A stretch of DNA of 64,000 nt from Chloroflexota bacterium (GTDB taxonomy: Bacteria > Chloroflexota > Chloroflexia > Thermomicrobiales > UBA6265): positions 15,764-79,763 of the forward strand of contig JAEWEG010000058.1 in assembly GCA_023389575.1 (NCBI GenBank). The letters run 5' to 3'. The notes beneath the pieces were generated by a model that made no database searches, was not told the DNA's origin, and was given only the letters and a program-made list of their open reading frames with translations. A program made the position numbers and the translations under genes. Position 1 is the first letter of the stretch; the number at the start of each line of letters is the position of its first letter. Shown in pieces: positions 4,763 to 28,544 of the stretch.

Positions 4763-4996
4763 TTATGCGGTTTCGGTTGGGTCGGTGGCCGGTGCTTCTC
4801 CGGCCAACCAGGCCTCTACCTGACGGCGGCTGAATCGGTATTCCTTGCCGAGCTTCAGCGTTGGGAACGGAAAGCCGTCGGTCCGGGCCATCGCGTGGGC
4901 TTTGGTGGAACCGATCCGGAGCCGAGCGCGCAGCTCTTCGAGGGTGTACAGGGTGTCGGATTCCGGTACTCGCGCCGGCGCGGTCTTGCTCACCAT
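4763..4996 (-). CDS. xis: Excisionase / AlpA-MerR-like HTH protein
   Basis: 77-aa protein LYTLEELRARLRIGSTKAHAMARTDGFPFPTLKLGKEYRFSRRQVEAWL, a typical excisionase-family HTH. Internal ATG of ORF 4763..5068. Confidence 0.7.
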   Translation of the reverse strand: MVSKTAPARVPESDTLYTLEELRARLRIGSTKAHAMARTDGFPFPTLKLGKEYRFSRRQVEAWLAGEAPATDPTETA

Positions 4997-5139
4997 GGAA
5001 GCCTCCTGGCATAAGTCGGGTCGCCGGTTCGCAACTAGGCACAGGCGACAATGGACGTTGGCAATCACTATAAGGCGAACATTAGTTCTGTGCCAGTACT
5101 TTATGAAACGTTTGTACGGTTTGTGCTCATGCTAGGGTG

Positions 5140-23932: not shown

Positions 23933-24006
23933 GATAGACCAAGATTACCGGTCGACCGGGCCAAATGGACTGCGAACAAACGTTCTGACTGCGATATACT
24001 GGGACC

Positions 24007-25098
24007 ATGTACGACGGACAACGGCCGCCCGGCCAAGCGGGCACCCGCCCGGACAATCCGGAAACCAGCAGACTGATGACGCCGGCGCAGCGTGAGGAGG
24101 ATGTCGCCGAGAAATCGTTGCGTCCCCGGAGGCTGGACGAATACATCGGCCAGGATCGGGTGAAGACGAATCTCAGCATCTTCATCCAGGCGGCGCTTGC
24201 GCGGGAAGAGGCGCTGGACCACATCCTCCTGTATGGCCCACCGGGGCTCGGAAAGACGACGCTGGCGAGCATCATCGCGGCGGAGCTTGGGGTGAACCTG
24301 CGGGTCACCTCGGGACCGGCGATCGAACGCCAGGGCGACCTGGTCTCGATCCTCACGAACCTCAAACCCGGTGATGTGCTGTTCATCGACGAGATTCACC
24401 GCCTGAACCGGGTGGTCGAGGAAGTGCTCTACTCGGCGATGGAGGATTACGCGGTCGACATCATTATCGGCAAGGGGCCGGCTGCCCGGACCATGCGCAT
24501 CAACCTGCCGCGGTTCACGCTGGTGGGCGCGACCACCCGCCTGGCGCTGCTGACAGGTCCACTGCGCGATCGATTCGGAGCGGTGCTGCGGCTCGATTTC
24601 TACGACCACGAGGCGATGGACCAGATCGTGAGGCGATCGGCGTCCATCCTGGGCGTGGAACTCGAGGATTCCGGTGCGTGGATGCTGGCCGGACGGGCAA
24701 GAGGGACACCGCGTATCGCGAACCGGCTGCTGAGGCGCGTGCGCGACGTCGCCCAGGTGGCTGGTGCTTCTGTCGTGACGGACGAAATCGCCGACGAGGC
24801 GCTGGGGCTCCTGGAAGTCGACACGCTCGGACTGGATGAGACCGACCGTCGGATCCTGGTCGCGCTCATCGAGAAGTTCGATGGCGGACCGGTCGGGATT
24901 GATACCCTCGCCGCGGCCACCAGCGAGGAGACCGACACCATCATGGATGTGTACGAGCCCTACCTGATCCAGCTTGGGTTCCTGCAACGCACACCGCGAG
25001 GCCGATTGGCGACCCGGAGGGCGTATGAGCACCTTGGCCTGCGGTATCCAGCGGAGCGGGCCGGAGCCCAGGCATCGCTGTTCGAGGAAGAGGCGTGA
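24007..25098 (+). CDS. ruvB: Holliday junction branch migration helicase RuvB
   Basis: [16 protein letters not shown]...[14 protein letters not shown]...FIDEIHRL. Confidence 0.95.
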
Positions 25099-27366: not shown

Positions 27367-27387
27367 TACAGGGCGACACAAAGCAAG

Positions 27388-27426
27388 AAACCCCGCTGGC
27401 GCTTCATTGGGCCAGCGGGGTTTTTC
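27388..27426 (+). terminator. Rho-independent terminator
   Basis: aaaccccgctggc...gccagcggggttttt. Confidence 0.8.
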
Positions 27427-27450: not shown

Positions 27451-27678
27451 TCATGCGGCTTCGAGCAGCGGATCGGACGCTTCCTCATACTGGTGGAGGA
27501 GGTCGATCCAGAACGCTTCCCAGGCGGTCACGTCCTCGCCGCGGGCGAGAGCCTGTTCGATGCGTTCATAACCATCGTTGAGGCGCTGCTCCAGGCTCCC
27601 GAGCCGGGTCGTCTCCCGTTCGCGCCGGGTGGAGCGAGCGCGAACGACCCTGAAATCAGCGTTCGGGTTTCCGTCCAT
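27451..27678 (-). CDS. Hypothetical small protein
   Basis: 75-aa charged helical ORF immediately downstream of the Rad52-like gene. Confidence 0.4.
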   Translation of the reverse strand: MDGNPNADFRVVRARSTRRERETTRLGSLEQRLNDGYERIEQALARGEDVTAWEAFWIDLLHQYEEASDPLLEAA

Positions 27679-27710
27679 CAGTTATTCCCTCCAAACGCCT
27701 GGCCGCTGGC

Positions 27711-28325
27711 CTAGGCTGGCTGCTTGGACCGCATCAGCTGGCGTTCCTTGAGCAGTTCGATCACCGTGGATGCATTCTTTCGCGAGATGGCGTCAATCGA
27801 GCCGCCGGTCTGTTCGCGGGCGAGATCGTCGAGCGCCTTGCTGTTGAGCTTGAGGTCCCGTGCGAGCGCCTGGATCAGGCCACGCTGGCGATCGGTGGCG
27901 GCGAGATCCGCGCCGGCCTGCGAGCGATCGAACTGACCCTCGGTCACATTCGTGGCCTTGAACTTCACGGGCGAGTCGACTACACGGCCATTAGCCGCAC
28001 CGAAGTCGAAGTCAGTACAGAACTGGGTGCCAAAGCCAAGCGCGGCGAGCGCGCGGCCAATGGCCTTCGTCTCGGCCTTTTCAAGGTAATCACCGAAGCC
28101 GCGAGCATCCTCGCTGCCCCAGCCAGTGGCGGAACCGCCGTCGGGAATGGAGACCATCGCCCGGAACACCGCTTCGTTGTCGTGGTGCGACACGAGTTCG
28201 GTTTCAATCACGGCATTCGGATGCTCGTTGCGAAGCCAGACCAGGCGCCATTTGACTTCGAGGTATTCCTTGCCGCTTACCAGCGTAAGGTGTCGTGCGG
28301 GATCGAACTGGGTTGAAGCTGACAT
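27711..28325 (-). CDS. Rad52/Sak/DdrA-like single-strand annealing protein (putative)
   Basis: 204 aa from the internal ATG (MSASTQF...). YLEVKWRLVWLRNEHP...ATGWGSE...EKAETKAIGRALAALGFG matches the Rad52-family pattern (K-A-x-S/T-D/K-A-x-K/G-R-A...FGIG) recalled from Sak and DdrA. Confidence 0.5.
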   Translation of the reverse strand: MSASTQFDPARHLTLVSGKEYLEVKWRLVWLRNEHPNAVIETELVSHHDNEAVFRAMVSIPDGGSATGWGSEDARGFGDYLEKAETKAIGRALAALGFGTQFCTDFDFGAANGRVVDSPVKFKATNVTEGQFDRSQAGADLAATDRQRGLIQALARDLKLNSKALDDLAREQTGGSIDAISRKNASTVIELLKERQLMRSKQPA

Positions 28326-28341
28326 CGAAGAGCCTTTCTTG

Positions 28342-28379
28342 CGAACGTTTGTTCTGAATTGATTATAGAACACATGATC
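28342..28379. promoter_or_regulatory. Candidate LexA (SOS, Cheo-type) boxes
   Basis: CGAACGTTTGTTCT (28342..28355; GAAC-N4-GTTC) and GAACACATGATC (28368..28379, one mismatch). They overlap the -10/+1 region of the promoter below. Confidence 0.55.
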
Positions 28380-28390
28380 TACTCGCGCAA
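28362..28390 (-). promoter_or_regulatory. Putative promoter of the Rad52-like gene
   Basis: Minus strand TTGCGC-17 nt-TATAAT. Confidence 0.5.
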
Positions 28391-28544
28391 TACCCAATGT
28401 GACTCCTGGGAACAGGCTGGCTGACCTTCTCGGGAATGAATCAGCGCCCGACGTTGGGAAGGACATGCCAGTTCTGTACGATCGGTGTGGCGTGATAGAC
28501 TTCAGGTCGTTGTATGTATGGAATTGCGTGAATGGGGTTGCCGG

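Follow-up and report, generated by a model that had tools for sequence, protein, structure and literature searches.

A gene for a 204-aa protein in the chromosome of a Thermomicrobiales bacterium (Chloroflexota) diverges from dnaN and recF behind what look like LexA operators. This arrangement raises the question of whether a Rad52-type annealase, a kind of protein otherwise regarded as belonging to phages or eukaryotes, has become part of a bacterial SOS response. Strand annealing in bacterial DNA repair is usually credited to RecO, and in Deinococcus to DdrA and DdrB. The locus lies in a window of 64,000 nucleotides, which is the whole stretch of DNA that was analysed. We consider it rather likely that the 204-aa gene and its 75-aa neighbour form a bicistronic operon of the host chromosome that is repressed by LexA, and that the first product is a phage-derived annealase of the Rad52 superfamily. 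Such an operon would enlarge the conserved SOS regulon of a phylum that has been little studied. In the literature we found neither a published description of the operon nor a Thermomicrobiales SOS regulon, nor any SOS regulon with a Rad52-type annealase among its core members.

Operon layout, promoter and candidate operators

The first gene of the operon is the 204-aa open reading frame (27711-28325, minus strand), with its ATG at 28325 and a Shine-Dalgarno-like GAAAGG ahead of it (28338-28333, minus strand). A gap of 32 nt separates it from the 75-aa partner frame (27451-27678, minus strand), which has its own Shine-Dalgarno sequence, GGAGGG, at 27687-27692. The operon ends at a bidirectional hairpin terminator (27383-27425, both strands) that it has in common with a convergent cyclophilin gene; the minus-strand RNA of this hairpin has a predicted fold of -31.8 kcal/mol (z-score -5.4) and is followed by UUUCUUGCUUU. 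Pfam calls identify all neighbours of the operon in the window as housekeeping genes, RecF-pathway genes among them, and place dnaN (from 28545) and recF divergent from the operon, as the first-pass annotation had claimed. The position of dnaN as the divergent neighbour is kept in 26 of the 30 ortholog loci. We re-read all coordinates of that annotation from the sequence, and every feature was found in its place.

The predicted promoter pairs a perfect -10 element, TATAAT (28362-28367, minus strand), with a -35 element, TTGCGC (28385-28390, minus strand), across a spacer of 17 nt. The -35 element keeps only the TTG core and matches TTGACA at three of six positions, which is why a scan for consensus promoters did not call the predicted operon promoter. 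The promoter had been described as near-consensus, a wording that suits the -10 element and is generous for the -35. At the equivalent positions, orthologs carry TTGACA or TTGCCA as the -35 and TATAAT, TATACT or TACAAT as the -10.

Both LexA-type boxes overlap this predicted core promoter and are placed so that binding would repress transcription. Box 1, GAACAAACGTTC (28343-28354, both strands), has perfect GAAC-N4-GTTC half-sites; it begins 7 nt past the -10 element, lies over the predicted transcription start and ends 17 nt ahead of the ATG. Box 2, GATCATGTGTTC (28368-28379, both strands), has one mismatch, fills the spacer between the -35 and -10 elements and abuts the latter. The perfect box and its one-mismatch copy had both been reported at these positions in the first reading of the sequence. 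It is proposed that LexA, by occupying operators over the spacer and the start, shuts out RNA polymerase. LexA control of dnaN was considered as well and rejected, as a search for a box near any plausible dnaN promoter found none.

The operator in the genome and among relatives

The GAAC-N4-GTTC palindrome is an SOS motif of the Gram-positive type (PMC3323433), and the operator at this locus is identical in type to that of the B. subtilis DinR/LexA Cheo-box regulon. In this organism the promoters of recA and lexA, which had been named as the place to look for the same motif, both carry it: the recA box, TCGAACAGATGTTCGC (C72:32), lies 52 nt upstream of recA, and the lexA box, ACGAACAAGTGTTCGA (C87:17070), lies 80 nt upstream of lexA. 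The motif also stands ahead of uvrB, ruvB and the gene for an IMS/Y-family polymerase (polY) in this genome. When ~4.66 million genome positions were scored with a matrix derived from the recA, lexA, uvrB, ruvB and polY sites alone, box 1 reached 17.8 bits (rank 16 genome-wide) and box 2 reached 18.7 bits (rank 14). The background frequency is low: across the genome, a perfect box precedes just 0.64% of the crudely called genes. Other boxes of the genome sit in mobile elements, for example at a portal gene and in a satellite-like element.

Among relatives, the box is found upstream of all 30 orthologs that were compared, in perfect form in 25, and in a set of species-representative Thermomicrobiales orthologs it is present in 79/79 (75 perfect, 4 with one mismatch). 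The N4 spacer and the flanks drift among these orthologs while the half-sites of the box persist. Box 2 is present in all orthologs from the same genus as GATC/GAAC-N4-GTTC. Homologs from distant Chloroflexota bear GAAC-N4-GTTC or GAAC-N4-TTTC, and the lexA box is perfect in one such genome. None of the 59 viral-contig homologs carries the box, even those that are 67-71% identical. As read from sequence, LexA control of the operon is well supported. LexA binding and induction by damage are what we infer from the operators, their regulon context and their conservation, all of which were established in silico.

Domain architecture and the question of annealing

Searches at the level of sequence families gave little to go on. 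The 204-aa protein matched no family in a local copy of Pfam at E ≤1, neither it nor the 75-aa protein matched anything in NCBIfam or Pfam, and the other Pfam SSAP families in the local copy (Sak, ERF, RecT and similar) likewise gave no match to the 204-aa protein. For Rad52_Rad22 (PF04098), no match was found at E ≤1 for the protein or for the whole genome. Matches in PHROGs were to families of unknown function only, and searches of PDB sequences, both single-sequence and profile, returned chance matches only (enoyl-CoA hydratase, vasohibin-binding protein). Transitive homology gave the same answer, as none of 67 diverse family members matched Rad52_Rad22 or another described SSAP family. All homologs carry the precomputed label PF27148. 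An hhalign comparison with 24 Chloroflexota Rad52_Rad22 domains was marginal (P 0.015 for a local alignment at the signature helix; the global alignment, which was colinear, gave P 0.03), and against human RAD52 alone it found the right motif without significance (E-value 0.31).

The full-length model was of middling quality (pLDDT 68, pTM 0.42) and its TM-scores were low, so the N-terminal Rad52/Sak-like domain (~residues 1-105; 28011-28325, minus strand) was re-modelled alone from a broader alignment in which phage relatives were included. The resulting AF2 model (pLDDT 82, pTM 0.75) runs through a beta-hairpin, a helix, three strands and a helix, and the invariant residues in the family alignment are R27, G90, R91 and G97. 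With this model, Foldseek ranks 1-12 in the PDB are all Rad52-superfamily annealases (80alpha Sak, Mgm101 and human RAD52), with query-normalised TM-scores of 0.38-0.63, or 0.51-0.63 for the longer alignments of 120-136 columns, and modest E-values of ~1e-3. Named matches of the 204-aa protein in BFVD include ERF, Rad52, RecT, SAK3 and a PDDEXK exonuclease fusion. A Rad52-type fold is thus predicted with confidence for the N-terminal domain. The first-pass annotation had called the protein Rad52/Sak/DdrA-like, and the confident model, with Sak, Mgm101 and RAD52 on top over the whole domain, bears out the Rad52/Sak fold; DdrA orthology falls away, since the gene lies outside Pfam Rad52_Rad22. 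A conserved GTQF...DFDF stretch was also considered as a clamp-binding motif and dropped, because phage members have it as well, as part of their conserved fold.

The N-terminal domain leads into a variable, probably disordered linker (~residues 106-140; 27906-28010, minus strand), with pLDDT <50 in both models and a length and sequence that vary across alignments. The linker is followed by a C-terminal three-helix bundle (~residues 141-204 plus the stop codon; 27711-27905, minus strand; pLDDT 84-89). Six family members have weak matches to DUF3072. The bundle resembles the C-terminal domain of lambda Red-beta (8tg7, 8tfu, 6m9k), the part of Red-beta to which lambda exonuclease and the SSB tail bind, and superposes on it with target-normalised TM-scores of 0.73-0.80 and rmsd of 1.6-2.5 Å. 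The N-terminal domains of the two proteins come from different superfamily branches, however, and in contrast to the Red-beta locus, an exonuclease gene is not adjacent to the 204-aa gene here.

The closest architectural parallel is phage Sak (80alpha Sak, PDB 8pq8, 8qe9; lactococcal ul36 Sak), in which an annealing domain, a flexible linker and a C-terminal helical bundle follow one another. 80alpha Sak is the best structural match of the N-terminal domain (TM 0.59-0.63, rmsd 3.4-3.7 Å), and the full-length model aligned to it across 198 columns. Unlike Sak, the 204-aa protein has no detectable sequence-family membership, with ~17% identity in structural alignments, and while Sak is a phage early gene, the 204-aa gene is fixed in the chromosome, where it has a partner restricted to its clade and a predicted LexA-controlled promoter of its own. 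In eukaryotic Rad52 and mitochondrial Mgm101, a hairpin, a helix, three strands and a helix follow one another as in the 204-aa protein (query-normalised TM 0.51-0.55), and in the marginal hhalign alignments (P 0.015-0.03) the signature helix aligns to RAD52 with invariant R91 opposite RAD52 R153, but the C-terminal regions are entirely different.

From the fold and the context, we infer a strand-annealing function for the 204-aa protein. In the undamaged cell, LexA dimers would sit on the two Cheo-type operators, at the spacer and at the transcription start. Upon DNA damage, RecA on ssDNA would trigger LexA self-cleavage, and the promoter with its strong -10 element would fire. The N-terminal Sak/Rad52 domain, perhaps assembled into a ring, would most likely bind ssDNA through a basic groove that includes invariant R27 and R91, and the C-terminal bundle, of the kind used by Sak and Red-beta, would make contact with a partner nuclease or the acidic SSB tail. 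The C-terminal domain of Sak is described as cooperating with the SSB tail (PMC11846896), and the C-terminal end of the host SSB reads DNFDDVPF. At gaps or resected ends, the 204-aa protein may in this way gain hold of ssDNA coated with SSB, where it would either anneal complementary strands (in SSA, SDSA or gap repair) or shield them.

A reading in which the protein is SOS-regulated and Rad52-like in fold, but protects ssDNA or ends or acts as a mediator (in RecA loading, or in fork restart near the clamp) and does not anneal, seems to us unlikely but deserves to be weighed. The obvious functional analogue of the 204-aa protein is DdrA (DR0423) of Deinococcus radiodurans, a chromosomal bacterial Rad52 relative whose expression rises after DNA damage. 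As the sole well-known chromosomal, damage-induced Rad52 relative, DdrA mainly protects ends (3′ ends), which speaks for a role of this kind here. DdrA belongs to Pfam Rad52_Rad22, which the 204-aa protein does not, and it is controlled by the DdrO/IrrE radiation-desiccation response and not by LexA; to our knowledge it has neither a Red-beta-like C-terminal domain nor a 75-aa partner. A non-annealing role would also suit the homolog in Thermus phage P23-45, which adjoins a helicase and a Holliday-junction resolvase and is annotated merely as an ssDNA-binding protein, and it would suit the order-wide conservation of dnaN adjacency together with the presence of RecF-pathway genes in the host. 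Set against this, the proteins that match best in structure (Sak, Mgm101 and RAD52) have all been demonstrated to anneal strands, and some phage homologs lie in the SSAP-exonuclease-SSB modules typical of annealing recombination; in phage MW202512, the gene order is a homolog annotated as Mgm101-like, an exonuclease and SSB.

The helix-three strands-helix sub-core of the N-terminal domain also matches dsRNA-binding domains in Foldseek, with probabilities of 0.85-0.99, and an HMM-level link to SSAP families is absent; both speak for a reading in which the domain would be a dsRBD-like module unrelated to SSAPs and the protein some other damage-induced DNA- or RNA-binding factor. These matches, however, span just 72-77 of 125 residues, at query-normalised TM-scores of 0.33-0.43 and E ≥0.024, whereas the SSAP matches at ranks 1-12 take in the N-terminal hairpin over 120-136 columns (TM 0.51-0.63). 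A dsRBD would leave this extra hairpin, with its conserved FDP...YLE motif, unexplained, and the same motif and the A-x-T-x(4)-R-A-L-x(3)-G helix are colinear with Rad52_Rad22 in the marginal hhalign comparison. The entire two-domain architecture also matches Sak, and the phage context is one of DNA replication and recombination, as neighbour tallies find genes for replication initiators, DnaB, SSB and exonucleases around the phage homologs. We regard an unrelated dsRBD-like module as very improbable, and a Rad52-superfamily annealase as the preferred identity of the first product.

Chromosomal fixation and the 75-aa partner

Full-length orthologs of the 204-aa protein occur in 44 of the 61 genomes of the order Thermomicrobiales, and the family is also abundant in viral contigs and cultured phages. 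In a quick tree, the chromosomal genes cluster on short branches among long-branched viral sequences; as the tree is unrooted and poorly resolved, it was used for clustering and branch lengths only. The gene had been taken to be chromosomal, and its core status in the order and its housekeeping flanks agree. Such fixation, as traced in silico across the genomes, suggests that a viral recombinase has turned into a host DNA-repair gene. A core gene of the whole order with an SOS operator that its phage relatives lack would show clearly that a phage recombinase was domesticated and put to use in the host's damage response.

That the gene is instead a passenger of a decayed prophage with no host function, its palindromes bound by another regulator or by nothing, is the least credible reading, since the abundance of the family in viruses and the location of the genome's other boxes in mobile elements, which would fit it, stand against full-length orthologs in 44/61 genomes that share one position next to dnaN and have short branches and housekeeping neighbours, a box in 79/79 chromosomal orthologs but 0/59 viral copies, and an identical motif at lexA and recA.

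Beyond the preferred reading of a LexA-repressed operon with a phage-derived annealase, a fuller history can be sketched tentatively. A Thermomicrobiales ancestor may have acquired a phage annealase in a single event, with related copies entering several other Chloroflexota lineages. The acquired gene may then have come under the control of LexA and settled permanently next to dnaN. With a 75-aa partner of new origin, it could constitute a damage-inducible pathway of annealing or gap repair that runs alongside RecA and is perhaps coupled to the replisome. If this is true, the operon would be an SOS-controlled equivalent, in bacteria, of what Rad52 does in eukaryotes. The versions of the protein from thermophiles (Thermomicrobium, Sphaerobacter and Thermus phages) could serve as thermostable annealases for recombineering.

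The co-oriented 75-aa partner proposed in the first-pass annotation is a real and conserved gene, present downstream of the ortholog in 24/30 loci of the relatives and in 70/80 Thermomicrobiales loci. No copy turned up when viral loci and the loci of other Chloroflexota lineages were searched with a profile, and the protein belongs to no Pfam family and has just 28 relatives in the database. The second product would be a Thermomicrobiales-specific two-helix protein and is probably an accessory or modulator of the 204-aa protein. Its conserved core reads LExRLxDGYxRIExAxxRGEDVTAWExFWIDLLHQYE.

Fold and likely activity of the 204-aa protein

The protein encoded at 27711-28325 on the minus strand matched no named family in the sequence libraries, and it belongs neither to Pfam Rad52_Rad22 nor to any other single-strand annealing protein family of the Pfam copy searched; homolog tables give it the precomputed label PF27148, which lies outside that Pfam set. 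No publications describing the family or a Thermomicrobiales SOS regulon were found in the literature searched. The family comprises ∼4,000 clusters at 50% identity. In alignments, the N-terminal ∼105 residues form a highly conserved domain that a variable linker joins to a helical domain at the C-terminus, and residues R27, G90, R91 and G97 are invariant among 67 diverse family sequences.

A full-length AF2 model is of mediocre overall quality (pLDDT 68); its domains are confident and the linker between them is disordered. In the PDB it best matches full-length 80alpha phage Sak (E 7.8e-5, 198 columns), and named matches in BFVD include ERF, Rad52, RecT, SAK3 and a fusion to a PDDEXK exonuclease. 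The C-terminal bundle superimposes on the C-terminal domain of Red-beta with a target-normalised TM of 0.73-0.80 (rmsd 1.6-2.5 Å). Because dsRNA-binding domains were also among the matches of the full-length model, the N-terminal 125 residues were re-modelled from an alignment that included phage relatives. This model (pLDDT 82, core 90-98; pTM 0.75) contains a hairpin (residues 13-22), a helix (24-34), three strands (39-73) and a second helix (80-95). Its PDB matches at ranks 1-12 are exclusively Rad52-superfamily annealases of the Sak, Mgm101 and RAD52 type, including Sak lacking the C-terminal domain (TM 0.59/0.58, rmsd 3.4 Å, 120 columns), a Sak complex (TM 0.63), Mgm101 (TM 0.54) and human RAD52 (TM 0.51-0.53). 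A dsRNA-binding domain was rejected as the N-terminal fold, as those matches span only 72-77 columns with a TM of 0.33-0.43.

At the sequence level, hhalign comparison of the family with 24 Rad52_Rad22 domains from other Chloroflexota genomes gave a marginal P of 0.015 over the signature helix and a likewise marginal P of 0.03 for a colinear global alignment, which in addition pairs the N-terminal FDP...YLE motif with PLDP...YLEG of Rad52. In the RAD52 alignment the invariant R91 lies opposite R153, a residue of the ssDNA groove. The protein is therefore assigned to the Rad52 superfamily on the basis of its predicted fold, which we consider very likely and that agrees with the Rad52-like fold first proposed for it.

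The biochemical activity may well be annealing, with end protection or a mediator role instead of annealing as the main alternative. Sak forms rings, anneals DNA and has a C-terminal domain that cooperates with the SSB tail (PMC11846896). The SSB encoded in this genome has a canonical acidic tail and terminates with DNFDDVPF.

Promoter, LexA operator and operon

On the minus strand, the predicted promoter region reads, in order, TTGCGC, GAGTA-GATCATGTGTTC, TATAAT, CAATTCA, GAACAAACGTTC, GCAAGAAAGGCTCTTCG and ATG. The first-pass annotation had called this promoter near-consensus, which holds for the perfect -10 element but not for the -35 element, where only the TTG core is retained; for this reason a consensus promoter scan made no call here. 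Orthologs carry TTGACA or TTGCCA at the -35 position.

The GAAC-N4-GTTC motif, reportedly a LexA box in Dehalococcoides, was sought across the whole genome (4.66 Mb, GC 64%). Intergenic sites with A/T-rich spacers precede recA (TCGAACAGATGTTCGC, 52 nt upstream), lexA (ACGAACAAGTGTTCGA, 80 nt upstream), uvrB (26 nt upstream), ruvB (a perfect GAACAAACGTTC at 23974-23985; the ATG, at 24007, follows 21 nt further on) and an impB/mucB-family polymerase gene, which supports the proposal that this Gram-positive-type LexA box (PMC3323433) is the host's own operator. When a weight matrix was built from these five sites, leaving out those of the target, the two target sites scored 17.8 and 18.7 bits, which gives them genome-wide ranks of 16 and 14. 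LexA control of the target operon is strongly supported in silico.

The 75-aa ORF (27451-27678, minus strand) begins 32 nt past the 204-aa ORF and has a GGAGGG ribosome-binding site. A hairpin 26 nt past its stop codon (-31.8 kcal/mol, z-score -5.4) is followed by a U-rich tract, so the unit looks like a self-contained bicistron. The N-terminus of the small protein is basic and variable, and a core of ∼40 residues (LExRLxDGYxRIExAxxRGEDVTAWExFWIDLLHQYE) is conserved. The protein matches no Pfam family and has just 28 relatives in the database. It follows the ortholog in 24 of 30 fetched loci and in 70 of 80 Thermomicrobiales loci, and is missing from a Thermomicrobium-like genus, all viral loci and the other Chloroflexota lineages compared; the co-oriented partner is a real, clade-restricted gene.

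Boxes at other genes were also noted. Within 23974-23998, the ruvB box is closely followed by a -10-like hexamer, TATACT, that is only 8 nt before the ATG, and thus ruvB may be SOS-regulated and nearly leaderless. Another box, GAACATTAGTTC (5077-5088), stands 8 nt upstream of a 101-aa ORF (4763-5068, minus strand) that, judged by eye, looks like an excisionase or HTH protein; since it lies inside a satellite-like element, that element may be SOS-inducible. Outside the window, two of the strongest LexA-type boxes of the genome (C25:54705 and C25:59607; C-numbers denote its contigs, of which C6 contains the window at 15764-79763) precede an SPP1-like portal gene and the small ORF next to it in what is probably a prophage, and boxes at C7:2085 and C7:3020 lie beside an ECF-sigma-like gene. 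Additional candidates for the SOS regulon (C49:27934, C72:58628, C28:11035, C44:64481 and C67:38968) comprise one gene each of the YjbR family, DUF6157 and DUF2851, and two 119-aa ORFs that have no Pfam match. The recA promoter region and its box are duplicated at two contig ends (C72:1-60 and C59:62270-end), where C59 and C72 probably overlap and join in the assembly.

Conservation of the operator

A full-length ortholog (E ≤3e-50) is present in 44 of 61 genomes of the order, and a relative at E ≤1e-26 in 54. All 30 fetched ortholog loci have a box ∼30-60 nt from the start, which is perfect in 25 and reads GCAC-N4-GTTC in five, all from one genus; the second box in the promoter spacer is also kept in same-genus loci. 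Across 79 species-representative Thermomicrobiales contigs, which as related genomes are non-independent samples, the box is perfect in 75, has one mismatch in four and is absent from none. At least 15 different N4 spacers occur, and 29 of these loci have two or more sites. By comparison, only 0.64% of the crudely called genes of the genome studied here have a perfect box upstream. Constant half-sites with drifting spacer and flanks are the footprint expected for a bound operator.

None of 59 viral-contig homologs has a box, even with one mismatch, within 150 nt upstream, and therefore the operator is tied to the chromosomal locus rather than to the gene family. More distant homologs, 40-48% identical and from other Chloroflexota families, have GAAC-N4-GTTC or GAAC-N4-TTTC upstream, beside -10-like elements; the lexA gene of one such genome has a perfect box, and lexA in another family has GAAT-N4-GTTC. 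LexA-type operators at these distant homologs are suggestive only. For the target locus, the sequence observation behind the first-pass annotation is confirmed, and its interpretation as an SOS-controlled Rad52-like annealase gene is supported.

Phage relatives and the chromosomal locus

On viral contigs, the family neighbours replication initiators, DnaB-type helicases, helicase loaders, SSB and exonucleases. Among GenBank phages it occurs in Thermus P23-45, P74-26, G20c and TSP4, Lactobacillus delbrueckii phages and a Bacillus phage. The cultured Thermus phage homologs (43-45% identity) are labelled hypothetical or ssDNA-binding protein. In Thermus phage P23-45_stolb3 (PQ158666.1, 4004-4642), the ssDNA-binding label is borne by a gene adjoining a helicase and a Holliday-junction resolvase; no experimental basis for this label in the P23-45 relatives was found in the literature. 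An uncultured spring-water podovirus (MW202512.1, 2902-3564) has a homolog labelled Mgm101-like, followed by exonuclease and SSB genes, an order that matches the classical annealase module.

The target locus is chromosomal and, as first described, sits in a replication/repair neighbourhood, flanked by ruvB, queA, an HD-domain gene and cyclophilin on one side and by dnaN, recF and folD on the other, with no phage genes nearby. The nearest relatives of the window are MAGs labelled Sphaerobacteraceae or Thermomicrobiales. The divergent dnaN adjoins the ortholog in 26 of 30 loci from at least three families of the order, and in a quick unrooted tree the Thermomicrobiales genes form one short-branched cluster amid long-branched viral sequences. 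Phage capture followed by vertical descent would fit this tree, although the direction is not proven. Two IMG/VR contigs (L031 and L032) carry copies 67-71% identical to the target, without the LexA box, the dnaN neighbour or the 75-aa partner, which suggests that the host locus and phages of Thermomicrobiales are still exchanging DNA.

In a phylum sample of 300 genomes, the family is patchy and stable within lineages, occurring in 22 of 23 genomes of one family, 5 of 5 of another and 0 of 28 from three sister families that belong to the same class. Of 301 Chloroflexota genomes sampled, 28 have canonical Rad52_Rad22 (PF04098) genes, and the five from Thermomicrobiales have none; at least one Chloroflexota genome (G248) carries both types. 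Outside the window, the genome studied here encodes a divergent paralog in which the N-terminal domain occurs a second time (C79:24286-25089, 267 aa; 40% identity across residues 23-100). Its linker is rich in Pro and Glu, and its C-terminal domain is of another kind. The paralog has no LexA box in the 200 nt upstream of the ORF and is kept across the genus.
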